The position numbers were made by a program, and so were the translations under genes. Below are positions 5,585 through 47,255 of a stretch of 64,000 nt of DNA, piece after piece; position 1 is the stretch's first letter, and each line of letters opens with the position of its first letter. The notes beneath the pieces were generated by a model. That model saw only the letters and a list, made by a program, of their open reading frames with translations, made no database searches and was not told the origin of the DNA. The DNA comes from an uncultured virus (IMG/VR IMGVR_UViG_3300050343_000171) (lineage: Duplodnaviria > Heunggongvirae > Uroviricota > Caudoviricetes > Crassvirales), in the IMG/VR virus record IMGVR_UViG_3300050343_000171; one strand, 5' to 3'.

Positions 5585-5884
5585 ATGAGTAACGAAGTGG
5601 GTGTAGACATAGACGGTGATGGAAAGCCAGATTTAAGTTTAGATTTAAAAACTATTATACTAATAGTAGGTGGTTTAATATCTATAACAATGACTTATAC
5701 TACTTTGACTGAGCAAATTCAGTTAAACAAACAAGGTATTGAAGAGGCTAAAAAACTACCGCCTCAACAGTCGCATGAAGTTATAGATCAAAAGCTTTTA
5801 TATCTTGAAGAAATGATGGATAAGCTTGCTGAAGATCATGATAAACGTTTAGATAAACTAGAAGATAAAATTTACAGAAGATAA
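5585..5884 (+). CDS. Small single-TM coiled-coil protein
   Basis: Hydrophobic segment IILIVGGLISITMTY followed by a charged coiled-coil; paralogous to the next ORF. Confidence 0.6.
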   Translation: MSNEVGVDIDGDGKPDLSLDLKTIILIVGGLISITMTYTTLTEQIQLNKQGIEEAKKLPPQQSHEVIDQKLLYLEEMMDKLAEDHDKRLDKLEDKIYRR

Positions 5885-5887
5885 AAC

Positions 5888-6184
5888 ATGGCAACAAAAA
5901 TTGGAGAAGACACTCAAGTACAACTAGACCTTAAAACAATTGGAATGATTGTTGGAGGAGTAATAGCTTTGGCAAGTATGTGGTTTACTTTGCAAAGTGA
6001 TATACAGGAGCTTAAAAATAAAGCAAATCCTGAGGAGTTTGTAAAACAAATGGAGTTTCAACTTAAAGATGAGTTGATACGTTCTACAATTTTACAAATA
6101 GAAAAATCTACTGAAGGTTTAAAAGAAGATATTTTAGATAATAAAGAATCAATAGAAAAAATAGAAGATAAAATATACCAATGA
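5888..6184 (+). CDS. Small single-TM coiled-coil protein, paralog of the preceding gene
   Basis: Shares LDLKTI..IVGG.I and ..K.EDKIY with the preceding ORF. Confidence 0.6.
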   Translation: MATKIGEDTQVQLDLKTIGMIVGGVIALASMWFTLQSDIQELKNKANPEEFVKQMEFQLKDELIRSTILQIEKSTEGLKEDILDNKESIEKIEDKIYQ

Positions 6185-6504
6185 AAAATTTAATTACAAT
6201 TATATTTATGTTGTTCACTTTTTTAGTAACAGCACAGGATTATACTTTAATGCATATAAATGCACAGTGGAATCAAAGAAATAATTTTGATTTAAGAGGT
6301 ATTAAAGAGGCAAAAATACAATATGCACTATTAGAAGATCAATCACCTTCTTTAAGAGCGCAAATAAAATCTGTGCCAATAATTATATTACTTGATAAAG
6401 ATGGTAAACCAAGAGGTCGATGGAATGCAAATTTAAGTTTTAAAATAACGGCTTCAAAAGAAGAAATTCAAAATAGAATATATTTTTTACTATCTCAAAA
6501 ATAA
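6181..6504 (+). CDS. Secreted thioredoxin-fold-like protein lacking CXXC
   Basis: N-terminal signal peptide, 'INAQWN' at the position of FxAxWC, and IKSVPIIILLDKDG resembling the thioredoxin cis-Pro region. Confidence 0.45.
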   Translation: MKNLITIIFMLFTFLVTAQDYTLMHINAQWNQRNNFDLRGIKEAKIQYALLEDQSPSLRAQIKSVPIIILLDKDGKPRGRWNANLSFKITASKEEIQNRIYFLLSQK

Positions 6505-6543
6505 AAAAAAATGGGCACCATACCCAAAAATTCCTGTAACAAG

Positions 6544-6575
6544 AAAGGGAGCTATGAAAATAGCCCCCTTTTTTT
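6544..6575. terminator. Intrinsic terminator between convergent gene blocks
   Basis: AAAGGGAGCTA-TGAAAA-TAGCCCCC followed by a T run, located between the + and - strand blocks. Confidence 0.75.
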
Positions 6576-6631
6576 ATATAATCAACTCCCACCAACCACT
6601 CATTTCCTTTGATCAACCCAACGAACGTTGA

Positions 6632-8366
6632 TTATCCATCACAACTAAGACAGCCGTCATCCATTGCTTGTTCAGCAATATCTCCACGTAACACTGACTC
6701 AGTACGAGTATAGTATAAAGTTTTAATACCTTTTTTCCAAGCTTCAAAATGTACTTTATTTATCCACTTAGGTGTAGCAACACTAGGAAAAGCTAAGTTT
6801 AAACTTACACTTTGATCTATATACTGCTGTCTGATACCAGCTTGATTAATTAACTCTAACTGATTAATCTCTTTAAATGTTTTAAATACATCTTTAGCTG
6901 GTATATCATTATAAGGACCAACCATAACTTTATTAAGTTCTTTTAACCCTTGTACTGATCCTCCGTCTTTTAAGATTTTAGACCAAGTAGTTTCATTATT
7001 GATTTTAAGTTTTCGAAAGAGCTTTAACCAATGTGGGATTTTTACGGATGAAAGTACCTTTAGCACTTTGCTCAGTAAATACATTAGCAGCCCAAGGCTC
7101 AATACCTGGAGATACATTACCGCTAAGCTTACTGTTACTAACAGTAGGAGCAATAGCCCTAAGATGAGTGTTGCGCAAACCAGTGCCGACACACCAAAGA
7201 GGTTCTCCAAACTCTTCAGCAAGAGCCATAGAGCTCTTTCAGATTCGATTTTAATTTGTGAAAATATTTTTCTTGTTTCATATTGTGATAATAACCTTCA
7301 AATGGTAAACCCTTTTCTTGTAGATACGTGTGCCAACCTAAAACGCCTAATCCTAAAGCTCTACCTTTTTCAGCAGATCTTACAGAATTATGAAATCCAA
7401 CTTTACCTTTGGATCTTTGTATAAACTCTTCTAATACACCATCTAAAAACCATATAGCTATCATGTATTAATATTTGTATTTTCCATTCATCATACTTAG
7501 CTAGATTTAAACTAGATAAACAACATATAAAGCTATGTTTTCATCTGTATGTAATGTTATCTCACTACATATGTTTGTCATATGTACTTTTAAACCGTTT
7601 TTTTGTAAGCTGTTGGGTTATTCTTGTTTGTATTTCCCTTAAATAAGCATATAAGGTTCTCCAGTAGCTTTACGCTTTTGAAGTAAGTTTTCCCCAACGT
7701 TTTCTAGCTTCTAACATCTCCTGTTTCAACTCTTCGCATGAACTTATCGCCGACCACAGCGCACTGGTGCAGGTTGAGCGATTGACGATTAACGTCTCCT
7801 TTAGGTTCACGTATTTCGAGCCACTCTTCAAAATCGGGGTGTTCAATGTTAATATTAACTGATGCAGCTCCTCGTCGGACAGATCCTTGATTAGTGGCAA
7901 GTATTGTTGAATCGTATATCTTACAAAAAGGCACAACGCCGTCACTTGTTCCATTTCCTTTTATTTTTGCACCAGCGGGTCTGATTTGATTTATACCGAT
8001 ACCAACTCCACCGCCGTGCTTTGCGAGTAGCATCATCTCTAGGTTTTTACTGTCCTATATCGTATATACTGTCAGCAACATCTATACCAAAACAACTGAT
8101 CGGTAAACCTCTGTCTGTCCCAGTATTAGACAACACAGGAGACGCAAGACATAACCAACCTGACCAAATGTATTCAAAAATTTTTCAGCCATATCAGGAC
8201 GTTCTAAACGTCTTGCTACAGTGTTACAAACTCTATCATAAGCATCTTTAGGTGTTTCATCTTTTAAAAGATAACCACCACCTATAGTTTTTTTATACAC
8301 ATCAGTGTCACCCCAACTAGGGTAATCAACTCCTTTTTTCCATTCATTATTCCACATCTGTTTCAA
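6632..8366 (-). CDS. nrdA: Ribonucleotide reductase class Ia large subunit (frameshifted in this sequence)
   Basis: Fragments contain KHGGGVGI, QGSVRRGAA, GRALGLGVLG, AIAPTVSNS, IDQSVSLN, KTLYY and C-terminal CLSCDG. Confidence 0.92.
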
Positions 8367-8737
8367 ACTTTTTTTGGTTGGCTCTTTTTTCTAATCTTGT
8401 AATTCTTCAACTAGCTTTTTCCAGGTATCTTCACCTATATGTAATTGAAAAGCTGTTAAAGTTGAGTTATAGCATCTTCATAACCTGGCAAATTAAATTT
8501 TATTGTATTAAAAACACTTTTTGTTTTAATTATATCTTTGACATTTGTTTTATAAATGATTAACTTGTTAATACCATTTAGGTTTTACTAAATTCCATTG
8601 TTTTCTTGACGCTGTCTGTATCATTACACAAATAAAACCTATTATAAATTTAGTTCTAACGTCCATTGCCCTGCTATTCTGCACCAAAATTTTGCATTCT
8701 ATTATTTTATTTTCTTTCATATTATTTAATTTTATTT

Positions 8738-9718
8738 TTACCAAACATCTTCAAAGTCTTCGCCTTCATTTGCTTTACTATAGTCAGTCGGCCTAATAGC
8801 GAAAAAATCAGTGTGAGTGTGACCCCCAGTAAGATGGTCGAACCAAGCCATTTTATCAATTGACTTTTGGTCATATTCAAATTTAAATTTTCCTTCTGCT
8901 TTGTAGCCCAGTTCTTTAAGTTTATCACCTGTACGTTTTTTAATAAAATGTTTTAGGTCATATTCTGTTATTCCTTCAATATCACCCATTTCAAACAACT
9001 TAGATATATAAGTCATTTCAGCATTATGCATAGTTAAAGCTGCATCATATATATGCTCTTTGCATTCTTCTTTTAATCCTGGTATTTTCGAACACATATG
9101 TCTAAATAATTGACAACCCATTTTACTATGTAATGATTCATCTCTTACAGACCATTTCATTTGTTGGCCAATACCTTTTAATAAGTTTCTCATTTGAAAA
9201 CTATAAAGTACAGCAAAAGCAGAATATAAACTAACGCCTTCTGCAAACGCAGAAAATGTAGCTAATGATTTACCTATACCTACAGGATCATTACCTTCAT
9301 AAGCTACAAGATTATCAAATCTAGCAGCTGTAGCTGGTTCATGTAAAAAAGCTTCATAAGTCTTCAAGACCTAAGGTTTCATTTAAATAACTATATGCTA
9401 CTGCGTGAATCGTTTCTTGCGATCCAAACATCATAGCCATTTGTTGTATCTCGTGTTTAGGAAACCAAGATACAACTTTTTGCGTCCAGTAATCGGAGAC
9501 AGCGCATTCGGTTTGTGCAAAGCCTAAGTAGTATGTTACCTACTAAGGTTTTTTTCTTTATCAGTTAATTTTTCGTTCCAGTCTTTAACATCACCTGACA
9601 TAGGTATTTCAGTATGTAACCAAAATGCTTGAGCTTGTTTTAACCAACCTTCAGTGTAATACTCAGGGTATTCAAAAGGCTTGTACGGTATTCTTTCTGT
9701 AAATAGTGGTATTCCCAT
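8738..9718 (-). CDS. nrdB: Ribonucleotide reductase small subunit (frameshifted)
   Basis: YKPFEYP..AFWLHTEI..D.KDW, EGVSLYSAF, RDESLH and HTDFFA.RPTDYSK motifs. Confidence 0.92.
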
Positions 9719-9843
9719 TAGCGTCCTTGGCCTCTATATTGTTTTTTATAACCTGTCTGTCCTTTAGAGGCGTTTTTAGAATGAACACCAGGTCGTCTTG
9801 TTTTACTCTTTCTTGTATAATTTGCTAGTACTATTTTTGCCAT
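9718..9843 (-). CDS. Small basic peptide (MAKIVLANYTRKSKTRRPGVHSK...YRGQGR)
   Basis: Translated by hand; 41 aa; the stop codon overlaps the nrdB ATG. Confidence 0.55.
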   Translation of the reverse strand: MAKIVLANYTRKSKTRRPGVHSKNASKGQTGYKKQYRGQGR

Positions 9844-10149
9844 TATTCTTCGTAATAAAAGCTTAAACAAATATCTATAAAACCTAAATAAAGTACGTGA
9901 TCAACTTGATAATCACCATCTTCATAAGATCTTATGCCAAATAATATACCTGGAAAAAATCCTGTAGATAATTCCCATGACGTATTTTTTTTAATCATAA
10001 CATTTAATATTATATTTATTATGGATCTCTAAAAGATCTTTCCATTTTAAATAACCTCTTTTATTTGTAGTCCATTTAATATAAGTATCGATCTTACGTT
10101 CTTTATATTTAGTTCTAGCTATATGTTTAGAGGCCAGTTTGTTTTTTCT

Positions 10150-10611
10150 TTGCATTTGTTCTATGGTTTTTTCTCATCTCTTCAATCTGTCTTATTGTAA
10201 AGTCACACTCAGATTGGTTTTGTGGTTTAAATAAAGCTATAGTGGGTGCATGTGTGACATCCATGATTTAAACATTTTCCAACGTAATGGAAACGATTCA
10301 TTTGGCCTACCTTTACATTCAATTACAAAATCTCTACCTACAAAATCTGGTTTGTATTTTATAGGTAGAATTTTTTTATAACCTCTATCTTTGTATTCAC
10401 CTTTACCGTTAGCTTGTCTTTCAAAACAAACATTTCCAAACTCAAAACCTTCAAGCAACGTATAAGAAGCAGGTTCATATTCAGCAACTATCTTAGCTGC
10501 TTTTAAAGCTTTATACATATAAACTTCTAATCCTGAAGCAAATTTAATACCATCGTATGTTACTTTTTTACTTCTGACTGGACCTTTTTTTTTAGAGTAT
10601 TTCTTCTTCAT
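10150..10611 (-). CDS. PD-(D/E)xK endonuclease, T7 endonuclease I / DUF1064-like; 3' end approximate
   Basis: DGIKFASGLE...YKPDFV...VIECKGR. Confidence 0.7.
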
Positions 10612-10862
10612 AAACGTTAATGTTTTTTAATAAAAGCTCTTCAGACATATCTTGCATTTCTTCTCTTGCTGCTTGTATGTATAGTATTGCATCCATTAAT
10701 TCTTCTTGTACGTCGTTTAAATAACCTGATAAGTCTTTTAAACCTTTAGTACGTTCGTCGTGTAGAGTTGAACCATACTTTTTCTGGCCGACATTAGACT
10801 ACGATTAATAAATTTATCTACAACTCGTTCTACGACTGGATCTCTAAATTCTATATTTTTAT
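10600..10862 (-). CDS. Small helical protein, possible NTP-pyrophosphatase-like fold (frameshifted; boundaries approximate)
   Basis: Hand translation gives VGQKKYGSTLHDER...YLNDVQEELMDAILYIQAA. Confidence 0.45.
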
Positions 10863-11150
10863 TTTTCATCTTTTACAAATGTTCCGTTAATCATTTTACC
10901 TGTTCTTTTACTAATAACTTCATATGCTTCAGCTATACATGTTTCTATATGTACACCTCGTTGATGTGCTAAGTTTGTTAACACTACAACCATATCACCA
11001 ATAGCATCTATAACTTCTGGTTGATCATCTTTTAATAAAGCTTTAGCTAGCTCACCAGCTTCTTCTTGTAGCTTAACATATTGAGTCATAGTATCACCTT
11101 TTTCATATAAAGCCTCTAGTTCTAGCCCAGTCTCTTATTTCTCAAACATA
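10859..11150 (-). CDS. MazG-like nucleotide pyrophosphohydrolase; possibly fused to the upstream ORF
   Basis: RDWARTRGL...KLQEEAGELAKA...DAIGDMVVVL. Confidence 0.8.
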
Positions 11151-11194
11151 ACCTAAACTTTTTTACTACACTGGTATTTAAAGCTTATTAACTT

Positions 11195-11629
11195 TTAAAA
11201 ATACTCTGCAAAAGCTTTATTATATATGTAAGATCTATTATCATTATACATAGAAACTTTAGCGTTATCCATTATCCATTGTATTGTTTGCATATCTATG
11301 TAGAACTTACCGTGAGATGTTTCCCATTTTATATTCATATTATCCATAAGATGTCCTTTTAGTTTGTTTAAAGGAACTGCAAAAGTTGAAGTCTGTTCTG
11401 TTACGTTTATTTTCATTTTCTTAAAAAGGTTTTTATATTTTTTTCTATCTACCTTATAGCCATAAGACTTTTGAAGTTCTATCTCTTTGTCTGATATATA
11501 ATCTATATCATCCGACTGATCAAGAACTTCATATTCACTAGAGCTATAGCCCTGAATTAATGTAACACGAGTATTAAGATCACGTGTAACACCTATCTTT
11601 TTACCTGGTATGTGGTATAAATAATACAT
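11195..11629 (-). CDS. Hypothetical protein with a GIY-YIG-like N-terminus
   Basis: YYLYHIPGKKIGVTRDLNTRV resembles the GIY-YIG Y..(K)IG.T..L..R pattern. Confidence 0.45.
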   Translation of the reverse strand: MYYLYHIPGKKIGVTRDLNTRVTLIQGYSSSEYEVLDQSDDIDYISDKEIELQKSYGYKVDRKKYKNLFKKMKINVTEQTSTFAVPLNKLKGHLMDNMNIKWETSHGKFYIDMQTIQWIMDNAKVSMYNDNRSYIYNKAFAEYF

Positions 11630-12279
11630 ATTTTGTTATTTTATCGTTATACAAATGTAAGTTATGTGCGAAATGGTAATACGTACCGATCTCATATCCT
11701 GTCCTCTCTGAGACTAATTCTTGTAGCTTTGAAAAACAATACTGATCATTACAGAAACCGTACCAGAGATCATTAGAACGCATCACAACTGACATATTTA
11801 GTTTATTGTTTAATACTGTAAACTGAACCGCATAAGTACATGGCGTATCTTTAGCATAGTAATGATGTTCTTTACCATCATATATACTTATTGCCGCGTG
11901 TCTAGTATTAGGATTATCCTTAAGCTTTGCAACTACATAATCTAATTGATAGTTACGTTCCCATTGCCAACCGTAATTAGATCTTACTTCATTATTACCG
12001 TCAACCATTCGTTGCCATATCTCAGGTACTTTACCATATATCTCTCCTAACTTATCTACATTAGGATCACCTGATAAGTACCATTGCCATTCAGCTTCAG
12101 CATATTCTTTATTCCATTTTCTGTTTTTAGCTAGTATATGATTATCCATAGGGTTTTTCAATATAAAAACCTATATTAAATAAAGCTCTAGTATTATCAA
12201 ACTTAACACCATCAAACATTATTTTGGAAAAAAATAATTAAAATGCATCACTTGCTGTTTTAAATTTTGTTTTTATCAT
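11601..12279 (-). CDS. Thymidylate-synthase-fold enzyme, dCMP hydroxymethylase/methylase-like; N-terminus frameshifted
   Basis: YGWQW, DNPNTRHA, catalytic PC, MRSNDLWYGFCND and HNLHLY motifs. Confidence 0.85.
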
Positions 12280-12514
12280 AATAAAATCTATATAATTCGA
12301 ATATTTTTTCGTTTAATTGTTTACCATCGTATTTAAATGGTGATCGTTTTTTAGCTCCATTAACCTCTACATCTATCCACCAGTAATAATTATCATGTTC
12401 ATTACTTGCTGCAAATGGAGATATTTTAACACCATTGTTTATACACCATCTATATGCCTCTGTATCTTCATCAGTCCATTCAGGCCCTAAAATGTTAACC
12501 TTTTTTTTCGCCAA
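12260..12514 (-). CDS. Hypothetical protein
   Basis: 84-aa ORF within the operon. Confidence 0.6.
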   Translation of the reverse strand: MAKKKVNILGPEWTDEDTEAYRWCINNGVKISPFAASNEHDNYYWWIDVEVNGAKKRSPFKYDGKQLNEKIFELYRFYYDKNKI

Positions 12515-12524
12515 GCCGCACTCA

Positions 12525-14244
12525 TTAATCCCAAGGCATTGCCTCTTCTTCTAGCTCAGCTAGTTGATGAGGTATGAAACAACCTGATTTATGTTCCCAT
12601 TTAAAATGAGCTTCAGCTCCGTTTTCACCTAGGTTTTGAAACTTTACTTTAAGTACTTTTGCTTTAACTGTTTTAGCTTCATAATCTCTGTGGACCAGTA
12701 TACCATGATAACTTGCATCATACCATTCGCCACCGCCTTTAATGTTATACATAGTAGGTTCTTCAATTTTACCATCTTTATCTCTATACATTTTAGTTGG
12801 ATGTGCTACAATAAAAACTAAGACATCATATTTTTTACAAAACATTTCAATCTTAGTTAGATATTCCATTGTATATCTATTTACATCCTCGGTTTTACAA
12901 TCAACATCTCTAATCTTATTAAATGGATCTATGACAAGACATTTAATACCTTTACGTTTAACTAGCTCAGCACCCTTACGTAATACAGACTCAAGAGTAT
13001 AACGTTCCATATCAATATGAAAAAAGTTATCATTACAATGTTCTGCAATCTGATTCCATTTATCTGAATGTATATCATTTCTTGTTGGCATATCTTGCCA
13101 TATCTTACGCATAAGCTTATGAGCATGTAAATATGTAGGAGCATTTTCAGGACTAGCAAAAGCTGTTTTCCATTGATACTTTTGGTTGTAACCAACTACC
13201 ATCTGATCAACGAAATCTGACTTTCCGCTAGATGGTATGCCAGTAACAGTGATAAACTGCCCAGTATAAGTACTAAAAATATCATCAAAATTAGGTAAGC
13301 CAATTTGATACCCAGGCTTGAAACCATTTTTAACAAAGTCTGTAATTTCATCTTCAATATCTTTAAATGTTTTTACGTTTTCTAATGGAACAGGTCTTGC
13401 ATCATTAATCTTATTTTTTAATTGTTCCTTACCGTATTTTATTAAATATTCATTTGCATCCTTACAATCTTCAAAACTTGCCATAAAACAAACTTCAGCA
13501 CCAAGACGTCTAATAAGTTCTTGTTGTAAAGCTTGACCAGGTTCATCATTATCTACAGCTAGTATTACTTTTTCTTTATCTTCAAAGTAATCTATACAGT
13601 TATCTAAGTAATCTAAATTATTAGAGTTTAGAGTTGCACCGTTAGGTACTGATATTGCATTTGTTATTCCAGCTTCATGTAATGCTAATACATCCATTTC
13701 ACCTTCAGTTATAACACAGGTATCAAAACCTACAATACTATTTATATTATAAAATACTTTTTCAGCACCTTTATATAGTTTAAAATTTTTACGACCATCT
13801 CTGTATTTAACATTGATTAACTCATCGCCTATTATATAATTGAACTGAATTGTATTCTCGGACTTGCCGGTCTGTGGCATAAACTCAGGACCCTCTGTGA
13901 CCATAAGATCGTCGAGGTTTGCTGAGATATACCACTTGTTTCAAACCATTCAACTACCTTAGCTAGTTATTTGATTTTGGGTCTACAACGGTCTAACGAA
14001 TAGGACGTATATTTTCACTAGCACCTTTACGTTGATACGTATGTAATTGAAATGATGAATCACAATGATGGCAAGTACCCAAACCTCGTTCCCAATCATA
14101 ACTAGCACATTTAGCCTTTTGGTTTTTAGGCTTTCTATCATGTGAACACAGGGGACAAATCCCCTGCGTTTTTCCTACATCTAGTTTATGTTGGTTAAAC
14201 TGGTCGATTAAAAATCCATTAATCTCCGTGTTGTTTACTTGCAT
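12525..14244 (-). CDS. T7 gp4/Twinkle-like DNA primase-helicase (frameshifted)
   Basis: Zn finger CPLC...CHHC, TOPRIM ITEGEMD and AVDNDEPG, Walker A GIPSSGKS, LVIDP and VAHP. Confidence 0.92.
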
Positions 14245-14254
14245 GTATTACTAT

Positions 14255-14278
14255 TTAAAAGGGTAAATCATCTTCCAT
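14255..14278 (-). CDS. Candidate micro-ORF MEDDLPF (copy of the SSB acidic tail)
   Basis: ATG GAA GAT GAT TTA CCC TTT TAA, overlapping the SSB stop as TAATG. Confidence 0.45.
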   Translation of the reverse strand: MEDDLPF

Positions 14279-14585
14279 TAAAATGGAAGATCATCTTCAA
14301 TGCTGCAGCTGCTACAGGCGGTGCCGCTTGTTGCTGTGGGTTATCGAACTTTTTAACTTCTCCGTTGGTCCATACTAATTTTACATTACCTAAGTATGTC
14401 TTTGCTTGTTTCGCTTCACGTTCTTCTTTACTTTGCGATACAATGACTGGACCCTGATTACCGAACTGATCAAGCTCATCGTTAAGAGTAATACTGATAG
14501 GTAAGTATTTACCTTTCTTACCAACAATGATCTTGTCTTTAGGTATTTCATTTAGATTAATGCTTGCTGCTAATATTAATGCCAT
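14278..14585 (-). CDS. Single-stranded DNA-binding protein
   Basis: Q/A/P-rich linker. Correcting a 1-nt indel gives the C-terminus EDDLPF*, the typical SSB tail. Lies next to the primase, exonuclease and ERF genes. Confidence 0.75.
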
Positions 14586-14788
14586 TATGCTGTTGTATTA
14601 AATAGGTTTGTGAACATAGTTCTAAGATCTGCTGCGTTTACACCAGTTCTTCTTCTGAAATTATCTGCTTTCTTAGCATATGGGTGCAAACCATCTGCAG
14701 TTGTATTGTTCTTGTAAAATTCAGTTACAGGAAAATTCATTCCAGTCATTGCACATTGTTTTGTTGTTACTTTTCTTTTTCTTGCCAT
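14585..14788 (-). CDS. Small basic hypothetical protein
   Basis: 67-aa ORF, translationally coupled to SSB. Confidence 0.55.
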   Translation of the reverse strand: MARKRKVTTKQCAMTGMNFPVTEFYKNNTTADGLHPYAKKADNFRRRTGVNAADLRTMFTNLFNTTA

Positions 14789-14800
14789 AATAAAATAAAA

Positions 14801-15529
14801 TTAAAGGGTTTTACTAATAAAATATTGTTTCGGATCGAAACTGTCTGTCTTATAAAACAGATCGTAAGCCTCAACGGCTCTTTTAACCTTGTCCTGCCCA
14901 GTTTCATAAAACTGAGGTGAACAGTCATAAATACCTATTTGATGTGTCTTTTTGTCTATAACAATAAACATAAATTCATAACCAAATAAACTACTATAAA
15001 TAAAAGCTTGACTATCGTAATTGTATTTAGAAGCTGAGTACTTAAATTTAGTAAGATCTGCTGTAGTCTTCAAATCAATGATTAACTTTTCATCGTGATT
15101 AACTATATCAGCTTTACCTTTCCACATTTGTCCTTCAAGTTCTACAATACCAGGTTGTTCATATTCAACATTACCTGTTATTAAACTTTTACATACGTCA
15201 TTACTCATGATTTTTTCTCTCATTAATTCTATAGAGTCAACCTCATGTTGTAGTAGACATAACTCTCCTCCAGCTATATCTTTATAAGCTTTAGTATTTC
15301 TAGTAGACGATTTCACAACTTTATACTTATCAAGCTTATTAGGCTCTAGTATAGCTGTGTGAAAATAACCACCGACTAAAAATGCAGCCGATGGTGGTGA
15401 CTGTTGTCCAAGTGCTAAAGGGTTGTTTAACAAAGCTGATATATCTGAGTTACTAAGGTATTGTTTACCAAAGTCTCCGTAGTAATGCTCATCAATTTTA
15501 AGCTTATCTAACACCTCTTGTTTAGTCAT
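14801..15529 (-). CDS. RecE/Exonuclease VIII-like PD-(D/E)xK exonuclease (DUF3799-like)
   Basis: LSNSDI, G.YFHTAILEP, KGKADIV, IIDLKTT and YNYDSQA motifs. Confidence 0.82.
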   Translation of the reverse strand: MTKQEVLDKLKIDEHYYGDFGKQYLSNSDISALLNNPLALGQQSPPSAAFLVGGYFHTAILEPNKLDKYKVVKSSTRNTKAYKDIAGGELCLLQHEVDSIELMREKIMSNDVCKSLITGNVEYEQPGIVELEGQMWKGKADIVNHDEKLIIDLKTTADLTKFKYSASKYNYDSQAFIYSSLFGYEFMFIVIDKKTHQIGIYDCSPQFYETGQDKVKRAVEAYDLFYKTDSFDPKQYFISKTL

Positions 15530-15530
15530 A

Positions 15531-16037
15531 CTATAATGTTATTTGTTTTTCAATTTCAGGAGTTACATTATATTTCTTTTTGATAGCATCGAGCTTTCCA
15601 CCGGCTTGTACAAAGTCTTTAGCTTTTTGTATAGCTGCTTTGTTCATTGGTAAACCATTGGTTGCATCAGCATCTTTGGTATCATCAATTAGGAATAAGT
15701 TACCTAATGCGTATTTCTTCCCATAACTTGAAGCAGTACCGAACTGTTGTGGTGTCTGCATACCTTTTTGATTAAGATCAACACCAACTAATGCTGTAGC
15801 AGGTATTGTATTTTCTCCATCAGATATAGTAGCACAACTTTCAATAATAGGCACAGGACTAGTCTCAACTAAGTTTTCATTAATTGTTACTGTTACTCCT
15901 AATTCTAATAAATAGGGTTTTGTTGCTTCAAGGATGTCTTCGGCTGAGCGGAAGTAATATTTGCCGAATGAGTTAAATCTACTTTTCTTCGATTTAAATT
16001 TGGTCTGGATTGTGGCCAGCTTTTGGTTTAAGGTCAT
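15531..16037 (-). CDS. ERF-family single-strand annealing protein
   Basis: FNSFGKYYFRSAEDILEA and QQFGTASSYGKKYALGNLFLIDD. Confidence 0.88.
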   Translation of the reverse strand: MTLNQKLATIQTKFKSKKSRFNSFGKYYFRSAEDILEATKPYLLELGVTVTINENLVETSPVPIIESCATISDGENTIPATALVGVDLNQKGMQTPQQFGTASSYGKKYALGNLFLIDDTKDADATNGLPMNKAAIQKAKDFVQAGGKLDAIKKKYNVTPEIEKQITL

Positions 16038-16043
16038 AGTTAT

Positions 16044-16071
16044 ATAATTACATGTTAAAATTAAGTTTTAC
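16044..16071 (-). promoter_or_regulatory. Putative class II promoter (GTAA-N16-GTRAT) upstream of the ERF operon
   Basis: GTAAAACTTAATTTTAACATGTAATTAT, with the same spacing as copies at 24820, 36693 and 60672. Confidence 0.5.
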
Positions 16072-16080
16072 AAGAGTAAA

Positions 16081-16846
16081 CTACAGATAATCAAGCACTT
16101 GCGAGTGATCTACATTATCAATTATTTATCTACAGCTTGTTTTTTAAGCTCTGAAACACGTACATAAGCACTGCTTCCTTCTATGTTTAATATCTCTGCT
16201 ATTTTATTAGCTGAATGCTTTTCACAGTCTAATCCATAGCTTAATCTTAATACCTCATATTCTTTTTCATTTAAATGAGTTTTTAATAAACCAGTTAAAT
16301 AAACGTTTAATAAACCTATATTATATGGCTCTGATTTATCAGCAATTTGATAGATCATAGACTCTTCATCATCAGTATTTTTAGGTTTATCATCAATAGA
16401 TAAAAACATACTATTAAAAAACATAGCAACCATCTTTTGATCTTTACCGTTGTTTTTACGTATTTCATTAAGTTTATGCTCAGGTATTCTTATATCACCT
16501 CTGTTTATATCAACAGCACGTCTTATACCACCTTTAATACGTTTAGATAAAAAAGATTTTAATGTTTTTTCTTGATCTGTCTGATTCACTTAATCTACCC
16601 AGTCTATTTTTCTAATAGCTTTAGTTAAACTTAAATTACCTTCTTGTATAAGATCATTGATACTCATAACACCTGATGCTTGTTGTGTTGTAGAGAATTT
16701 ACGAGCTATGTTTTCTACTAATAGCATAAATTTCCATTGCAATTGTTCTGACTTAAATATTGAACATCAATATCTTCTATTAGTTTTAGTTTAATTATTA
16801 AATCGTTTTTATAACGAATATAATTAGGTATATTATATTTTTTCAT
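16081..16846 (-). CDS. Phage sigma-70-family factor (frameshifted)
   Basis: Hand translation gives region 2 LVENIARKF...SINDLIQEGNLSL.KA. Region 4 is LNEKEYEVLRLSYGL...IAEIL...RVSELKKQA. Confidence 0.85.
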
Positions 16847-17474
16847 TTGATTGATTTAAAAGTTCTTTTTCTTTTTTAAGTTCATAACTCATGTTTCTAT
16901 GTATAGTTCTAGCAGAACAATTTAATAAACCTGCAAGTCTGTTTATAGTTATTCTTTTACCCATGTCATTTATATCTAACATGCATTGGTAAATATCATC
17001 TTCGTGTATTCTTTTTGATCTACCTATTAATTGACCTACGATCGTTAGTTTTTGTGACAGATCTAAAGGGCAATTGTCATTAAATATAACTTTTCTTAGT
17101 TTATTTTTAGGTGGTTCTTCAAGATCACACATGCTCACATCATATATTATTCTTTTAAGTAATTCTGGAGGTATATCAAACGCAATAAATCCATACTTAT
17201 AATTAGCTATAGTTTCAGATAGCTTTGTAAACTCATTCATGTCTAGTTGTGGGTTTAAATACCACAAGACTAACAGATGCCATTTTAATGATTTGTATGT
17301 AGTAATTTTAGCTTTACTACGAAACAGATCATAACATTCATAAGTACCTTCTTCATAAAATTTACCGTACTCAAACTCTAATGTAGGTTTATCTGTTATT
17401 GGATTACGTCTGTATACAATCCGCCTCTTGTTTAAATAATATAAGTGACGCGGTATTGATACGTAATGTGACAT
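16833..17474 (-). CDS. Protein with a C-terminal helix-turn-helix (regulator or replication initiator)
   Basis: ITINRLAGLLNCSARTIHRNM. Confidence 0.65.
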   Translation of the reverse strand: MSHYVSIPRHLYYLNKRRIVYRRNPITDKPTLEFEYGKFYEEGTYECYDLFRSKAKITTYKSLKWHLLVLWYLNPQLDMNEFTKLSETIANYKYGFIAFDIPPELLKRIIYDVSMCDLEEPPKNKLRKVIFNDNCPLDLSQKLTIVGQLIGRSKRIHEDDIYQCMLDINDMGKRITINRLAGLLNCSARTIHRNMSYELKKEKELLNQSNEKI

Positions 17475-17511
17475 TAGCCTCTTACTCTCTTATTCTTAGA
17501 CCTATTGTCAC
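17468..17511. promoter_or_regulatory. Inverted-repeat site A, overlapping the HTH gene start
   Basis: GTGACATTAGCCT-cttactctcttattctt-AGACCTATTGTCAC; homologous to 24746-24790. Confidence 0.6.
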
Positions 17512-17585
17512 GTTTAGGTTTTTGAAATGATTTAACTTTATCTGCAATTTTAAAAACATTAGTTGACATTAAATGTTTTATTTGT

Positions 17586-17934
17586 TTAGTTGTACTCATA
17601 TAATTTAATTTTAACATTAGTCCATTTACCTCCCTTCATTGTCTCGTCGACCAGGAAGTCTATTCTATTAGTCCATCTTTTATTCATTCTATCTCTTATG
17701 ACCCAAAGGCCATTCATATTACCTGCATTGCTAACAACAACTAACTTATTCATTTTAAAGCCTTTAGCTTCAAGATCCCGAGACACAGCAATTATTCTGT
17801 GTACTCAGGGTTGTTCATATTGATTTTAAAATTTGTAGCTGTTCTATCAGGCGTACTGTCTGTCTGAGATGGTGTTGCGTGATATATCGTCAAGCGGTCA
17901 CAGTCAAAAGGGTACTTAGTATAAGGTTTTTCAT
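17586..17934 (-). CDS. 3D-domain / double-psi-barrel cell-wall-associated protein (frameshifted)
   Basis: MKNLILSTLLTVT signal-like start, TIYHATPSQTDSTP, IAVSRDL and DRMNKRWTNRIDF. Confidence 0.65.
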
Positions 17935-18384
17935 TTTTATTAATTATAGTTTTCTTATCATTAATATAGTAATTCCAATAAGCTTTAACAGAATTACCTT
18001 CAACTTTATATTCATCGGGCATACATTGTGGAGGTTGTGTAAAACCGGTATGTAATATACCACCTGGATATTTAGCTAATTTTTTAGCACATTTAGTAAT
18101 ACTTAAATGTTTTTACCATAACGCTTAGTATACTCATCGCCAAGTGCAATCATGTAATGGTATAGCCAATAATAGTTTTGACCAGACTGTCTAGCCCATA
18201 TGGTAGACGGATGATTTACATGTGCTTTCTTGTAAGGTATATCCTCACATTCATAATCGAGGTTATACATGCGATGAGCGGTACATAGCATTTGTGCTGC
18301 TTCGAGTATCATCTTAACTTTATGTTTGTCATAATGATAAGCGGCAGCTTCATAAGGATCAGGGTGTAAATAAAATATATTCAT
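17900..18384 (-). CDS. Pyrimidine-dimer DNA glycosylase-like protein (frameshifted; 3' end approximate)
   Basis: MNIFYL...DKHKVKMILEAAQMLCTAH...HVNHPSTIWAR...EYTKRYGK...PPQCMPDEYK. Confidence 0.72.
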
Positions 18385-37153: not shown

Positions 37154-38695
37154 ATGTCAAATGCAATTGTAAAAAATCTGAACTTTGGTTCGGATGCTAA
37201 AAACAATGTGTTTGCTGGTATTACAAAACTTACACAAGCCGTTAGCTCCACACTAGGAGCTAGTGGCAAATGTGTTATGTTAGAAGATAGTACTGGTCAA
37301 CCTATTATTACAAAAGATGGTGTAACTGTAGCTGAAGCTATTACACTTCTTGATCCTGTTGAAAACATGGGAGCAACATTACTTAAACAAGCCGCAAAGA
37401 AAACTGTTAGTGAAGCAGGTGATGGAACCACTACAGCAACCGTATTGGCTCATGCTATACTAAGTGAAGCATATAAAGTAATAACAAAAGAAAACTCAAG
37501 AGAAGTAAAAGAAAGTATACTTACAGCTACAAACAAAGTAGTTGATTACTTAGATTCTATAGTAACACCAGTAGATGGTGATATGATAGATCAAGTTGCT
37601 ACAATATCTACAAATAATGATCCCATACTTGGTAAAATTATTGCAGATGCTTTTAGATCAGTTGATCAAACAGGTGTAGTGATGCTAGAGGTTTCTGATT
37701 TACCAGAAACTAATTTTGAAACTATTGATGGTGTACAATATGATAGAGGATTAAAAAATATACATTTTGTAACTAATCAAGATACTAAAACAGCTGAACT
37801 AGATAAACCTTTAGTTTTAATCGTAGAGTCAGAGGTTGAAAATGTAAGAAAAATACAAAGTGTTTTAGAGTATGCTATAAAGAATAAAAGATCATTACTT
37901 ATTATTGCTGATATTGATCAACAAGTTATGTCAGCTTTAGCAATGAACAAAATAAAAGGTAATATTAAAGTAAATGTTATCGATGCACCTATCTATGGTG
38001 TAAATAAAAAAGAAACACTAGAAGATTTAGCGTTACTTACAGGTGCTACAGTTATTAATGAAGATCTTGGAGATGATATTGATTTAATACAACCTGAGCA
38101 ACTTGGTGAATGTAAGAAAACAATAACTAGTGAGCATGAAACCATATTGCAAGTTCATGAGGTAAATAAAGAAGTCAAAGATTTAATTGAAGATATAAAA
38201 GCTAAACTTAAAACAGCTAAACACCCAGGTATTATAATTAATAATGAAAAAAGATTAGCTAGATTATCAGGTAAAGTTGCTATTGTAAAGGTTGGTGCTA
38301 ATTCCGAGGTTGAATTAAAAGAAAAACGTGATAGAGTTGAAGATGCTATCTGTGCTACTAAAGCTGCTATCAAAGAAGGTATTGTACCTGGTGGTGGTAT
38401 TGCTTTATTAAATGCATCACAAGAAATAGATACTTCAAACTCTTTAGAAAAAATACTTTTAAGAGCTATTAAATCCCCTTTCAATACAATACTTGCTAAT
38501 GCTGGTATTAAAAATGAAAAGTTTTTTAATCAAGAAGGTAAAGGTCTAAACGTTGTTACAGGAAATATGGTAAATATGATTGAGTCAGGGATTATTGATC
38601 CTTTACTCGTCACAAAAAGTGCATTAAAAAATGCTAGCTCTGTGGCTAGAACTATTTTATCAACCGATTGTGTAATTAATAATCTTAAGAATTAA
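37154..38695 (+). CDS. groEL: Phage chaperonin GroEL
   Basis: ITKDGVTVA, AGDGTTTATVLA, KVGA.SEVELKEK.DRVEDA..ATKAAI.EGIVPGGG and GIIDP..VT.SAL.NA.S. Confidence 0.97.
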   Translation: MSNAIVKNLNFGSDAKNNVFAGITKLTQAVSSTLGASGKCVMLEDSTGQPIITKDGVTVAEAITLLDPVENMGATLLKQAAKKTVSEAGDGTTTATVLAHAILSEAYKVITKENSREVKESILTATNKVVDYLDSIVTPVDGDMIDQVATISTNNDPILGKIIADAFRSVDQTGVVMLEVSDLPETNFETIDGVQYDRGLKNIHFVTNQDTKTAELDKPLVLIVESEVENVRKIQSVLEYAIKNKRSLLIIADIDQQVMSALAMNKIKGNIKVNVIDAPIYGVNKKETLEDLALLTGATVINEDLGDDIDLIQPEQLGECKKTITSEHETILQVHEVNKEVKDLIEDIKAKLKTAKHPGIIINNEKRLARLSGKVAIVKVGANSEVELKEKRDRVEDAICATKAAIKEGIVPGGGIALLNASQEIDTSNSLEKILLRAIKSPFNTILANAGIKNEKFFNQEGKGLNVVTGNMVNMIESGIIDPLLVTKSALKNASSVARTILSTDCVINNLKN

Positions 38696-38955
38696 TGAAA
38701 GCAATAGGTAATAATTTAATAGTAGACATGACAAAACAAGGTGTCTCTGAAACCAAAGGCGGTTTGTTTTTAGCAGAAAAACAACGAGAAGATATAAGAT
38801 ATGCAGAAGGTACAATATTATCAGTAGGTAGTAGTGTTATAGGGATTAAAAAAGGTGATGTTATTTATTTTGATAAAAACAACGCTCATCAAATAGAAAT
38901 AAAAAAAGAAATATATCAAATTGTTAATATAGCACACGTAGTTGTTGTGTTATGA
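38695..38955 (+). CDS. groES: Co-chaperonin GroES
   Basis: ETKGGLFL...GTILSVG...IKKGDVIYF; adjacent to groEL. Confidence 0.9.
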   Translation: MKAIGNNLIVDMTKQGVSETKGGLFLAEKQREDIRYAEGTILSVGSSVIGIKKGDVIYFDKNNAHQIEIKKEIYQIVNIAHVVVVL

Positions 38956-43985: not shown

Positions 43986-44212
43986 TGTCTTCAATTATTA
44001 GAAAGATAAGTATTGGTTCTGACTATAAAACTGATGCTATGCATTATTCAGTAGGGCAGTCAGTATATGGTGGTCATACTATATCACATATACTTTCTGA
44101 TACAGAAGATAATTCTTATAATATTTTTATCAAAAAACAAGACGAGGTATTGCCGTGGAAGAAGTTTAATTCTAACATGGCTATATCCGTTGAGTATGAT
44201 TTAGAGTATTAG
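43985..44212 (+). CDS. Hypothetical protein
   Basis: 75-aa coupled ORF. Confidence 0.65.
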   Translation: MSSIIRKISIGSDYKTDAMHYSVGQSVYGGHTISHILSDTEDNSYNIFIKKQDEVLPWKKFNSNMAISVEYDLEY

Positions 44213-44817
44213 TGAAAAGCTTATTTGATTTTATTGTTGAGCCAGTAGGCCAGCGATATAATAATGAAGTTAAAGTAGGTGACAAAAGCCTTATAATTAA
44301 CACACAGGTAGAAACTTTTAAATCTGTAAATAATATAGCTAAAGTTATTGAAATACCTTTATCTTACAAAACTCCTATACAAAAAGGTGATTTAGTTATG
44401 ATTCATCATAATGTGTTTAGAAGATGGTATAATATGAAGGGTAAAGAAAAAAACAGTAAATCTTATTTTAAAGATAATTTATATTTTGTTCAACAAGATC
44501 AAATATATTTATATAAAAAAAAAGATAAATGGAAAGCTTTTAATGATAGATGTTTTATAGCACCAATAAAAGATAAAGTTGAAATACATAATGTTTTAGA
44601 GCAAAACCTTATTGGTATATTAAAATATGGTAATAATGCGTTAGAAGCGCTAGAAATCAACGAGGGAGATCTTGTTGGCTATAAACCATTTGGAGAATAT
44701 GACTTTGTCGTTGATGGCAAACGTCTTTATTGTATGAAATCTAATGATATTGTAATTAAATATGAACGTCAAGGAAACGAAGTTGAATATAATCCAAGCT
44801 GGGCACAAAGCAGTTGA
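44212..44817 (+). CDS. Putative tandem GroES-like protein
   Basis: Two halves with FIVEP...IQKGDLVMIH and FIAP...INEGDLVGYK...VDGKRLYCMKSNDI. Confidence 0.55.
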   Translation: MKSLFDFIVEPVGQRYNNEVKVGDKSLIINTQVETFKSVNNIAKVIEIPLSYKTPIQKGDLVMIHHNVFRRWYNMKGKEKNSKSYFKDNLYFVQQDQIYLYKKKDKWKAFNDRCFIAPIKDKVEIHNVLEQNLIGILKYGNNALEALEINEGDLVGYKPFGEYDFVVDGKRLYCMKSNDIVIKYERQGNEVEYNPSWAQSS

Positions 44818-45034
44818 AGAACTTATTAAAGTTGCTAAAGAAGCTATTGTTGATTCTGATGATGATATATCAGCTGATAGATTAAAAAATGCTGCAGCTA
44901 CAAAAAAGCTAGCTATATTTGATGCTTTTGAAATACTTAATCGTATACAAGAAGAAAGTAATATATTAGAAGATATAATTGTAGATAAAAAAGAAACTAC
45001 TTTTAAAGGTTTTGCTGAAAAAAGATCTAAGTAA
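44762..45034 (+). CDS. Putative terminase small subunit
   Basis: Helical 90-aa protein immediately before the large terminase. Confidence 0.5.
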   Translation: MNVKETKLNIIQAGHKAVEELIKVAKEAIVDSDDDISADRLKNAAATKKLAIFDAFEILNRIQEESNILEDIIVDKKETTFKGFAEKRSK

Positions 45035-47255
45035 TGTACGAGCAAAATTTATATAAAATAGTTGAACCTATAAAGCCACATGTTATTAAAAGACTCAATA
45101 AGTCTAAAAAATGGGAGTATGGTTATAATAAAGAATATGATATTATAGTAATAAGCAGAACCGGACAAATCGGTGAAATATACGAAATACAAAACCTTGT
45201 AATTGCTTTGCCACTAGAAAATAATTCTTATAAAAGATCTAATTCTATAAAAGATCAACACTGGGAAGTGTTTGAAAAAAGAAGAGAATTAAAAAATATT
45301 AAAACAATATTTGATTGGAAAACTTACCCAGACACATTTAAACAAAAACTGCACAATTACATAGATGAAGAATTTAAAAGAAGAGACGAAGGTTTCTGGT
45401 TTTATAACAAAGGTGTTCCTACCTATATTACTGGTACTCACTACATGTATTTGCAGTGGTCAAAGATTGATGTTGGGCAACCAGACTTTAGAGAAGCAAA
45501 CAGATTATTCTTCATATTCTGGGAAGCTTGCAAAGCAGACAAAAGATGTTATGGCATGGCATACCTTAAAAACAGAAGGTCAGGATTCTCTTTTATGGCA
45601 TCGGGCGAAACCGTTAATATGGCAACAATCTCAAGTGATGCAAGATTCGGTGTTCTCTCAAAATCTGGAGCGGATGCTAAAAAGATGTTTACAGATAAAA
45701 TTGTTCCAATCTCAGTTAACTACCCGTTTTTTTTCAAACCGATCCAAGACGGTATGGACAGACCCAAAACGGAGCTCGCATATAGAGTTCCAGCGTCAAA
45801 GTTTACAAGAAAAAAGCTTGAAGCAAATGAACGGCTTGAAGAAATGGTTGGACTCGATACAACTATCGACTGGAAAAATACTGGAGATAACTCCTATGAC
45901 GGTGAAAAACTTATGCTCCTTGTACACGATGAAGCGGGTAAATGGGAAAAGCCGGAAAACATCTTAATAACTGGCGTGTTACAAAAACAACATTAAGATT
46001 AGGTAGTACAATAATTGGTAAATGTATGATGGGGTCAACGAGCAATGCTCTTGATAAAGGCGGTAGAAACTATAAAAAATTATATGATGACTCAAATGTT
46101 ACCAAAAGAAACCGCAATGGACAGACTAGCTCAGGATTATATAGCTTGTTCATACCTATGGAATGGAACTACGAAGGATACATTGATGCTCATGGATACC
46201 CTGTCTTTGAAACTCCAAAATCCGAAGTTGATGGCATCGATGGCCAAAAGATTGAAATTGGCGTCATTGAACACTGGGAGAACGAAGTAGATGGCCTTAA
46301 GAATGATCCTGATGCACTTAATGAATTATATAGACAATTTCCTCGCACAGAAAAACACGCGTTTAGAGATGAAACAAAACAATCTTTATTTAATCTAACT
46401 AAGATATACGAACAAATAGATTATAATGAAGATTTAAAACATTCGAACGTGGTTACTCAAGGTAATTTTCAATGGGAAGATGGTATTCAAGACACTAGCG
46501 TTATATTTGTACCAAGTAAACAAGGTAGGTTTATGGTTTCTTGGGTTCCTAATATAAATCAACAAAATAGAATACTTATAAAAAATGGTAAAAAATATCC
46601 TGGTAATGATCATATGGGAGCTTTTGGGTGTGACAGTTATGATATATCCGGAACAGTAGATGGTAGAGGATCAAAAGGTTCTTTACATGGTTTAACTAAG
46701 TTTAGCATGGAAGACGCTACCACCAAATTTATTTTTTTAGAATATATAGCAAGACCACAAACTGCTGAAATATTTTTTGAAGATGTTCTTATGGCTTGTC
46801 ATTTTTATGGTATGCCAATATTAGCAGAAAACAATAAACCAAGATTATTATATTATTTTAAAAGAAGAGGTTATAGAGGTTTTTCTATGAATCGACCAGA
46901 TAAAACAATGCATAAATTATCTATAACAGAAAAAGAAATAGGTGGTATACCAAACTCAAGCCAAGACATAAAACAAGCTCACGCCGCTGCAATTGAAGCT
47001 TATATTGAAAATTTTGTAGGTTACAATAATGAACAATATGGATCAATGTATTTTCAAAGAACTTTAGAAGACTGGGCTGCTTTTAATATAAATGATAGAA
47101 CAAAACACGATGCGTCGATAAGTTCTGGATTAGCTATTATGGCTTGTAATAAAAATAAATATAGACCCGTTGCTGATCTTATTAAAGAACCTGTAAATTT
47201 AAGTTTTTCTAAATATGACAACAGAGGCAATGAATCAAAAATAATTAATAGATGA
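45034..47255 (+). CDS. Terminase large subunit (one indel near 45960)
   Basis: Walker A-like KNRRSGFS, Walker B LLVHDEAGK, coupling motif GSTSN, nuclease FGCDSYD and terminal HDA.ISSGLA. Confidence 0.9.

Follow-up and report, generated by a model that had tools for sequence, protein, structure and literature searches.

The locus described here raises the question of whether a gene of the thymidylate synthase (TS) fold, carried by an uncultured phage, serves to make thymidylate or to modify cytosine and, in the latter case, which modified base it produces. The gene occupies positions 11601–12279 on the minus strand of IMG/VR record IMGVR_UViG_3300050343_000171, a virus assigned to Crassvirales, and the whole stretch of 64,000 nucleotides that was analysed is called the window below. 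From its residue pattern, we predict that the gene encodes a deoxycytidine monophosphate (dCMP) C5-hydroxymethylase of the T4 gp42 type within the TS superfamily. It is followed by a gene in which a GIY-YIG-like domain is fused to a MazG-like pyrophosphatase domain, and both genes are broken in the window. A further question is therefore whether the damage is real or was introduced when the sequence was made.

A TS homologue with the cytosine-type aspartate

Most of the gene is covered by an open reading frame (ORF) of 186 amino acids (aa) at 11601–12161 on the minus strand. This ORF holds the motif RSNDLWYGFCND at 11745–11780 (minus strand), which contains Arg166, Ser167, Asn168, Asp169, Gly173, and Asp177 in the numbering of E. 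coli ThyA, which is used throughout. The original prediction, which had proposed a cytosine-type enzyme on the strength of this motif, had read it correctly, and the comparison motifs that it gave for E. coli ThyA and T4 gp42 also match the fetched sequences. The codons for Asp-Thr-Pro-Cys at 11838–11849 (minus strand) include the catalytic Cys, equivalent to Cys146, and place an Asp at the position of Leu143.

The 186-aa ORF matched the Pfam family Thymidylat_synt (PF00303) far beyond chance (E 2.2e-24; 86.5 bits, cut-off 24.3) and the thymidylate synthase families of PHROG with E values of up to 3e-40. When solved structures were ranked, T4 dCMP hydroxymethylase (1b49) came first at 5e-19, followed by MilA at 1.1e-17 and then by true thymidylate synthases at 1.4e-14 or weaker. 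On the other hand, none of the seven NCBIfam ThyA equivalog models reached its cut-off (108–427 bits), and the highest score was 76.4 bits against a cut-off of 327. An intact relative (L003) scored 74.2 bits on the best of these models, and T4 gp42 scored similarly low. No other TS homologue is present in the window.

Related loci were collected from IMG/VR, and 78 of the 80 that were kept were analysed; the other two (L017 and L029) proved to be the two ends of one contig with the gene cut and were dropped. The TS-fold gene was uninterrupted in all 78 relatives, with a length of 202–234 aa and mostly of 213–217 aa. A search of 5.8 billion proteins returned at least 8000 clusters at E 1e-20 or better, and all of the best 120 matches, which were inspected for motifs, carried the DTPC motif together with the cytosine-type RSND..D pattern. 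Where the source databases name these matches at all, they call them 'thymidylate synthase'.

Residue code and predicted product

Published residue rules relate positions in this fold to substrate and product. According to passages of PMC8670742 and PMC13326640, the change of Asn177 to Asp shifts the preferred base from uracil to cytosine, and both cite Liu and Santi 1992 for the finding that Asp177 alone suffices to make a thymidylate synthase a dCMP methylase. A passage of PMC13326640 also correlates the change of Leu143 to Asp or Glu with hydroxymethyl, not methyl, products and takes the change of Asp169 to Asn as the mark of the newly found 5-hydroxy-dCMP synthases. In a passage of PMC5175136, Ser167 and Arg126 mark enzymes acting on deoxyribose, not ribose, substrates.

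We aligned the window ORF and its 78 relatives with E. coli ThyA, T4 gp42, RB69 gp48, and the PaMx74 enzyme. The window and all 78 relatives keep Glu58, Trp80, Tyr94, Arg126, Cys146, Arg166, Ser167, Asp169, Gly173, Asp177, His207, and Tyr209. Asp, rather than the Asn of ThyA, was found at position 177 in the window, in every one of the 78 relatives, and in all 120 best database matches, and the deoxyribose-type pair of Ser167 and Arg126 was present in 78 of 78 relatives. Asp169 was likewise kept in the window and the 78 relatives; RB69 gp48 has Asn at this site in the same alignment. Three residues ahead of the catalytic Cys, the window and all relatives carry an Asp (DTPC), at a site that reads D-F-M-C in T4, E-Y-P-C in RB69, and L-A-P-C in E. 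coli. Furthermore, Thr147, Met165, and Asn168, again found in the window and all 78 relatives, are the residues of T4 gp42. The protein stops a few residues past the His-x-Tyr motif, and the C-terminal region of ThyA, of approximately 50 residues, is absent. In ThyA, the C-terminus shuts the active site for hydride transfer.

Read by these rules, the residue pattern is that of a predicted enzyme specific for dCMP and for deoxyribose and of the hydroxymethyl type, and it fits neither a methylase nor a 5-hydroxylase nor a thymidylate synthase. The original prediction had offered either 5-methylcytosine (5mC) or 5-hydroxymethylcytosine (5hmC) as the modified base. Its cytosine-type enzyme of T4 pattern stands, and the choice now leans to 5hmC because Asp143, Thr147, Met165, and Asn168 match T4 and because the ThyA C-terminal region is missing. 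A phylogenetic tree of 28 rows, including E. coli ThyA, the PaMx74 enzyme, T4 gp42, RB69 gp48, and SPO1 gp29, was also constructed but was not used for the product call; in this tree, E. coli ThyA and the PaMx74 enzyme grouped together with 99/99 support, apart from the window family.

The downstream fusion gene and a putative 5hmC pathway

In all 78 loci, the TS gene is directly followed by the fusion gene, recognized by its N-terminal motif. In the relatives, it is one ORF of 249–333 aa that starts at, or a few bases from, the TS stop (intact in L003 at 6533–7303). In the window, the N-terminal 144 codons of this three-domain gene, corresponding to the GIY-YIG-like and middle domains, lie at 11195–11629 (minus strand), and the C-terminal domain, a MazG-like all-alpha nucleoside triphosphate pyrophosphatase (NTP-PPase) into which this part continues in the relatives, lies at 10859–11089 (minus strand). 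The two parts are severed by frameshifts in 11090–11194, with indels near 11193, 11187, 11141, and 11111. The MazG-like neighbour noted in the original prediction is thus real, scoring above the cut-offs of Pfam PRA-PH (30.7 bits, cut-off 21.3) and MazG (26.3 bits, cut-off 22) and matching a MazG-like PHROG at 1e-25, but it is only the tail of a broken three-domain gene rather than a complete one.

The MazG domain has invariant EE.GE and D..GD columns, and its Foldseek matches comprised 1vmg (TM-score 0.75 on the target), MazG proteins, the MazG of cyanophage S-2L, and the mammalian deoxycytidine triphosphatase (dCTPase) DCTPP1. Models of the fusion protein had a mean predicted local distance difference test score (pLDDT) of 83.8 over the whole protein and of 86.9 over residues 1–147. 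Residues 1–60 form a beta-beta-alpha-beta-alpha unit, for which VIA-align against the PDB gave I-TevI (Z 5.4), the 5hmC-specific endonuclease PD-T4-3 (5.2), UvrC (4.9), and T4 EndoII (4.2), all below the caution line of Z 8. Tyr5, Gly13, Thr15, Arg21, and Glu49 are invariant in this GIY-YIG-like domain. For the N-terminal and middle domains, Foldseek found nothing in the PDB at E 0.001 or better, and the GIY-YIG-like part had no Pfam match. The structural matches of the conserved middle domain (approximately residues 72–147) reached only Z 2.5–3.7, and none was convincing. A fusion of a putative nuclease and a pyrophosphatase adjoining a predicted cytosine-modifying enzyme recalls T4 EndoII and gp56. 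The MazG domain is likely a dCTPase and the counterpart of T4 gp56, judging from its gene context and from the co-occurrence of PRA-PH/MazG domains with TS(Asp177) in cytosine-modified metavirome contigs, as described in a passage of PMC8670742.

Taken at the level of sequence, C5-modified deoxycytidine probably enters the phage DNA through a cytosine-type TS homologue coupled to a MazG-type pyrophosphatase. We favour, as rather probable, the more specific reading that the cassette is a 5hmC pathway of the T4 gp42 type and that the phage DNA carries 5hmC. The enzyme would be a stripped-down homologue of T4 gp42, approximately 215 aa long when intact, which does without the ThyA C-terminal region. 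Its catalytic Cys would attack C6 of dCMP, and methylene-tetrahydrofolate would give a one-carbon unit to C5; the resulting exocyclic methylene would then be resolved by water, not hydride, to yield 5-hydroxymethyl-dCMP. The MazG fusion protein would hydrolyse deoxycytidine triphosphate (dCTP) to dCMP, which would both supply the enzyme and exclude plain cytosine from the phage DNA.

As the original prediction had stated, neither a kinase nor a glycosyltransferase is recognizable in the window: no deoxynucleoside monophosphate (dNMP) kinase or glycosyltransferase emerged when 81 ORFs were compared with PHROGs and 49 ORFs with Pfam, and a Walker-A scan returned the P-loop of the primase–helicase and matches inside structural proteins, and nothing else. 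Since no such phage enzymes are recognizable, phosphorylation would be left to the host or to an unrecognized enzyme, and the 5hmC may remain undecorated. The PHROGs and Pfam scans also recognized no dCMP deaminase, dihydrofolate reductase (DHFR), or DNA polymerase in the 64-kb window.

Frame breaks in the window

From the correct start codon at 12279, 13 codons can be read before a TAA, a second stop is reached after 45 codons, and the long ORF occupies another frame. The span 11601–12279, which had been proposed as a single gene, does not therefore form one frame, because the first 40 or so codons (12279 to 12162) are in other frames and contain two stops. Alignment of the first 170 bases of the gene with those of six IMG/VR relatives, together with pairwise and four-way alignments, revealed three single-base length differences at 12152–12243 (minus strand) that are private to the window and break the N-terminal frame (the first 45 or so codons). 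These are an extra T in a T run near 12237–12243, a missing A in an A run near 12215–12223, approximately 20 bases after the extra T, and an extra base at an A/C run near 12152–12159. A fourth private deletion abolishes the TS stop, and the window ORF extends 9–10 codons into the next gene.

Two biological explanations of this arrangement were rejected. Stop-codon recoding or a programmed frameshift does not account for the TAA, which is produced by two compensating one-base indels found in none of the six aligned relatives. An intron with a homing endonuclease (the ORF at 11195–11629) in a td-like gene was also ruled out, because this ORF is the conserved N-terminal part of the fusion gene in all 78 loci and because the TS gene ends naturally at that point.

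The breaks are not confined to the TS gene. In a four-way alignment of approximately 12.7 kb, the window had 30 private one-base indels, compared with 6 in L003, 1 in L015, and 5 in L014, and it was not the most divergent row. The genes for a sigma-like protein, the MazG fusion, DNA ligase, and both subunits of ribonucleotide reductase (RNR) are intact in the relatives and fragmented in the window, and the primase–helicase, which has 574 aa in the relatives, is split into parts of 83 and 459 aa. The large terminase gene (45034–47255) and the portal gene (47252–49665), also intact in the relatives, are frame-broken as well, and the affected regions are 5700–18200 and 45034–49665. By base, the 30 private indels comprise 10 C, 10 A, 9 T, and 1 G, and C and G account for 13.5% and 18.5% of that strand, respectively; this tally is aligner-dependent and strand-asymmetric and was not used.

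One possible explanation is that the indels are real: the phage would be decaying or defective, and its TS gene would be a genuine pseudogene. The fact that the terminase, portal, ligase, primase–helicase, both RNR, MazG fusion, and TS genes are all broken is consistent with this. However, the substitutions tell a different story. When the window was read in the frame of L003, we counted 86 synonymous and 9 non-synonymous differences in the RNR small subunit, 98 and 37 in the RNR large subunit, 102 and 47 in the primase–helicase, and 29 and 14 in the TS gene. These synonymous proportions were no worse than those between intact relatives, indicating no sign of relaxed selection, and the 30 one-base indels of the window, against 1–6 in its relatives, were not accompanied by a matching non-synonymous excess.

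Public sequencing data point in the same direction. The stretch was found in 20 public runs from 14 studies, and no run contained more than 0.53 of the sampled window words, a ceiling that is expected if the window carries private errors. Contigs from four public runs, each from a different study, were placed on window positions 6601–16600, and 12 of the 95 indel rows were listed. At sites 8380, 8393, and 9544, all the covering depth had the state of the relatives; at site 7232, three runs showed this state at all or nearly all of the depth, and the remaining run (X11) at 10.3 of 24.4. At the sites listed, the indel states of the window were absent or in the minority.

We consider it highly likely that the frame breaks are sequencing or assembly errors, and the gene is very probably intact in the natural phage; a pseudogene in a decaying phage seems unlikely. 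Four points nevertheless limit the case for errors. The breaks are unevenly spread, as very long structural ORFs of 1507, 1054, and 914 aa are uninterrupted, and just 10 of the 30 private indels have an identical base beside them, which means that a simple homopolymer artefact does not explain them; both of these features would suit real decay. Among the 12 of 95 indel rows listed, none falls within 11601–12279, and the evidence from reads therefore concerns sites outside the gene. Finally, one relative (L062) also seems to read through its TS stop as the window does.

A second cytosine-type occupant and alternative products

A search with the fusion protein identified 548 relatives, of which 80 were kept and 71 analysed, after the exclusion of two that also belonged to the first set and of seven with fewer than 700 bases upstream. 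In 58 of these 71 loci, the fusion gene was directly preceded by a gene of the short DTPC type. In the other 13 (L101, L102, L106, L109, L111, L113, L121, L124, L135, L156, L158, L164, and L165), the upstream gene encoded a full-length ThyA-like protein of approximately 280 aa that has Leu143, His147, and the C-terminus of ThyA but carries Asp177 (LPPCH..RS[AV]D..D). From this sequence pattern, the ThyA-like protein is a predicted dCMP methylase. Both occupants of the slot are of the cytosine type, which supports a cytosine-modification role of the cassette, and their exchange suggests that related phages differ in which cytosine modification they make.

This swap gives weight to the possibility that the window enzyme is itself a dCMP methylase, i.e., a 5-methyl-dCMP synthase of the XP12 / PaMx74 type, and that the phage DNA contains 5mC. 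The 5mC-type pattern occurs in this phage group, in the same slot in 13 of 71 loci, and Asp177 alone converts a thymidylate synthase to a dCMP methylase, according to the work cited in the passages of PMC8670742 and PMC13326640. However, the window differs from this type at every discriminating site, with Asp instead of Leu at 143, Thr instead of His or Pro at 147, and Met instead of Gln or Leu at 165, and it is without the C-terminal 50 or so residues that ThyA and the PaMx74 enzyme keep. The grouping of the PaMx74 enzyme with E. coli ThyA at 99/99, apart from the window family, argues against a methylase as well, as does the fact that neither a DHFR nor a dCMP deaminase was recognized in the window, whereas PaMx74 has both by its gene. 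We therefore regard a methylase at this position in the window as improbable.

A flavin-dependent 5-hydroxy-dCMP synthase of the RB69 gp48 / DLP3 gp80 type, making the base for glycosylated 5-hydroxycytosine, would have in common with the window enzyme Asp177, an acidic residue at 143, and, as in RB69 gp48, a short C-terminus. We give this very little credence, because the diagnostic change of Asp169 to Asn (the rule given in a passage of PMC13326640) is absent from the window and from 78 of 78 relatives, because Trp80, Tyr94, Glu58, and Gly173 are kept here and altered in RB69 gp48, and because sugar-nucleotide and glycosyltransferase genes were not found in the scans of the window. An ordinary thymidylate synthase, giving dTMP for an AT-rich genome beside a phage RNR, is hardly credible either: although the gene is the sole TS homologue in the window, lies in the RNR block of a genome with approximately 32% G+C, and has relatives named 'thymidylate synthase', position 177 carries Asp instead of Asn in all 78 relatives and all 120 best matches, the NCBIfam ThyA equivalog scores fall far under the cut-off, and the C-terminal region is missing.

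Weighing the proposed 5hmC pathway

Several points count against a 5hmC pathway of the T4 type. The product is predicted from a residue code that is correlative, and the relevant passage of PMC13326640 itself goes no further than to say that Leu143 'appears to correlate' with the product. Arg127 is replaced by His or Gln in the family. In the tree, 6 of the 25 inner branches were well supported, the deep nodes were unresolved, and the join with T4 gp42 is one of long branches meeting. The MazG domain showed no sequence likeness to T4 gp56 by BLASTP (E 0.82). In addition, the T4 pathway needs the gp1 kinase, and a dNMP kinase is missing here, as are a glycosyltransferase and a DNA polymerase.

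In its most far-reaching form, which is speculative and which we consider unlikely as a whole, the proposal would be that very abundant uncultured ocean phages with Flavobacteria-type hosts replace cytosine with bare 5hmC. They would do so with a hydroxymethylase of 215 aa that is translationally coupled to one polypeptide, in which a MazG dCTPase is combined with a GIY-YIG nuclease that would, like T4 EndoII, cut cytosine-containing host DNA; a dNMP kinase and a glycosyltransferase of their own would be lacking. In close relatives, the ThyA-like dCMP methylase would take the place of the hydroxymethylase, and the type of modification, 5hmC or 5mC, would be set by an exchangeable cassette as these phages and modification-dependent host nucleases engage in an arms race.

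If the cytosine-type assignment is true, thousands of 'thymidylate synthase' genes in marine metagenomes would be genes for cytosine-modifying enzymes (at least 8000 clusters were matched), and a common group of ocean phages would have 5hmC or 5mC DNA. This would bear on the sequencing, cloning, and restriction of such phages and on the counting of nucleotide 'auxiliary metabolic genes'. The principle dates back to T4, and published work has already carried it over to metavirome contigs (a passage of PMC8670742; bioRxiv 10.1101/2024.12.05.627091), and the result is a well-founded annotation rather than a discovery. A practical lesson is that the window sequence in all likelihood has many frame-breaking one-base errors.

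Other genes and phage context

Downstream of the fusion gene, at 10612–10869 (minus strand), are the remains of a conserved helical protein of approximately 80–136 aa, which stays open in the window for only 43 codons (10738–10869) and is intact in L003 at 7293–7577. It occurs at this place in 29 of 31 relatives and has invariant R-S..G..K-Y-G and Q-E-E..D motifs. The original prediction had taken it for a second possible NTP-PPase-like ORF, a proposal that we could not substantiate: hhalign of the 94-aa ORF against the MazG domain gave a probability of 2% over 15 columns, a profile search of the PDB gave 0 matches at E up to 1, and Pfam, NCBIfam, and PADLOC returned nothing meaningful, so the protein has no detectable likeness to MazG and belongs to no known family among those searched. 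The TS gene shares a nucleotide-metabolism block with the RNR genes at 6632–9718 (minus strand), comprising the small subunit at 8738–9718 and the large subunit at 6632–8366, both of which are fragmented in the window.

The PHROGs scan identified tail fibres, a portal, a terminase, an endolysin, a holin, and GroEL/GroES in the window, which is consequently from a phage. The GroEL-like chaperonin (513 aa; PHROG 4.6e-134) with a GroES-like partner and, further along the window, a second GroES-like protein of 201 aa are encoded in the regions 37154–38955 and 44212–44817. A DenV-like pyrimidine-dimer DNA glycosylase is encoded at 18103–18384 (Pfam Pyr_excise, 1.1e-06; PHROG, 1.1e-41). The genome has a G+C content of approximately 32%, and the public runs that contain the stretch are seawater and viral metagenomes.

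The major structural protein of the window is 42–46% identical to those of Maribacter phage Panino, Flavobacterium elemoviruses, and Cellulophaga phages. The TS gene was searched for in two of these cultured capsid relatives: it had no match in Maribacter phage Panino, and the one weak match in Flavobacterium phage elemoF fell within an unrelated ORF with no sign of a thymidylate synthase. The nearest TS relatives from cultured phages are those of Bacteroides phages, at 50% identity. A full-text literature search, judged on title or abstract, found no paper on this phage lineage.

Comparison with known systems

A close parallel is T4 gp42 (1b49, 6a9a, and 6l18), which works with the gp56 dCTPase, the gp1 dNMP kinase, and glucosyltransferases. 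The window family has the same residues as T4 gp42 at positions 58, 80, 94, 126, 143 (Asp), 146, 147, 165–169, 173, 177, 207, and 209, and, as in T4, the TS-fold enzyme is paired with an all-alpha NTP pyrophosphatase. Unlike T4 gp42, the family is approximately 30 residues shorter (approximately 215 versus 246 aa), has His or Gln in place of Arg127, and is approximately 38% identical over the core. Moreover, the pyrophosphatase of this cassette is a MazG domain that forms part of a three-domain fusion, and neither a gp1-like kinase nor a glucosyltransferase is recognizable in the window.

Among cultured phages, the closest relative is gene 32 of Bacteroides phage BF486P2 (WAX06796.1), with 50% identity over 95% of the ORF. 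It encodes 226 aa, shares the DTPC and RSND..D pattern, and is automatically annotated as a deoxycytidylate 5-hydroxymethyltransferase. In contrast to the window, a dUTPase and a second TS paralogue of divergent sequence lie near the gene in BF486P2, and it is not adjoined by a GIY-YIG/MazG fusion. The two BF486P2 paralogues (L001, 3054–3815 and 5887–6567) both have Asp177 and lie approximately 2 kb apart, flanking the dUTPase.

In the MetaGPA contigs of coastal and sewage samples described in a passage of PMC8670742, TS(Asp177) likewise occurs with a PRA-PH/MazG-type domain on phage contigs, whereas the window is without the dCMP deaminase or carbamoyltransferase of the modules reported there. 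The 5-methyl-dCMP synthases of XP12 and PaMx74, which replace cytosine in phage DNA (bioRxiv 10.1101/2024.12.05.627091), are also TS homologues with the cytosine-type Asp177. The window enzyme is distinguished from that of PaMx74 by Asp143, Thr147, Met165, and the lack of a C-terminal region, and the PaMx74 gene adjoins those for DHFR and a deaminase. Finally, MilA, the CMP 5-hydroxymethylase of mildiomycin biosynthesis (5b6d) and the second-best solved match, resembles the window family in having Asp at both 143 and 177; the family differs in its deoxyribose-type Ser167 and Arg126, where MilA has Ala and Lys according to a passage of PMC5175136.

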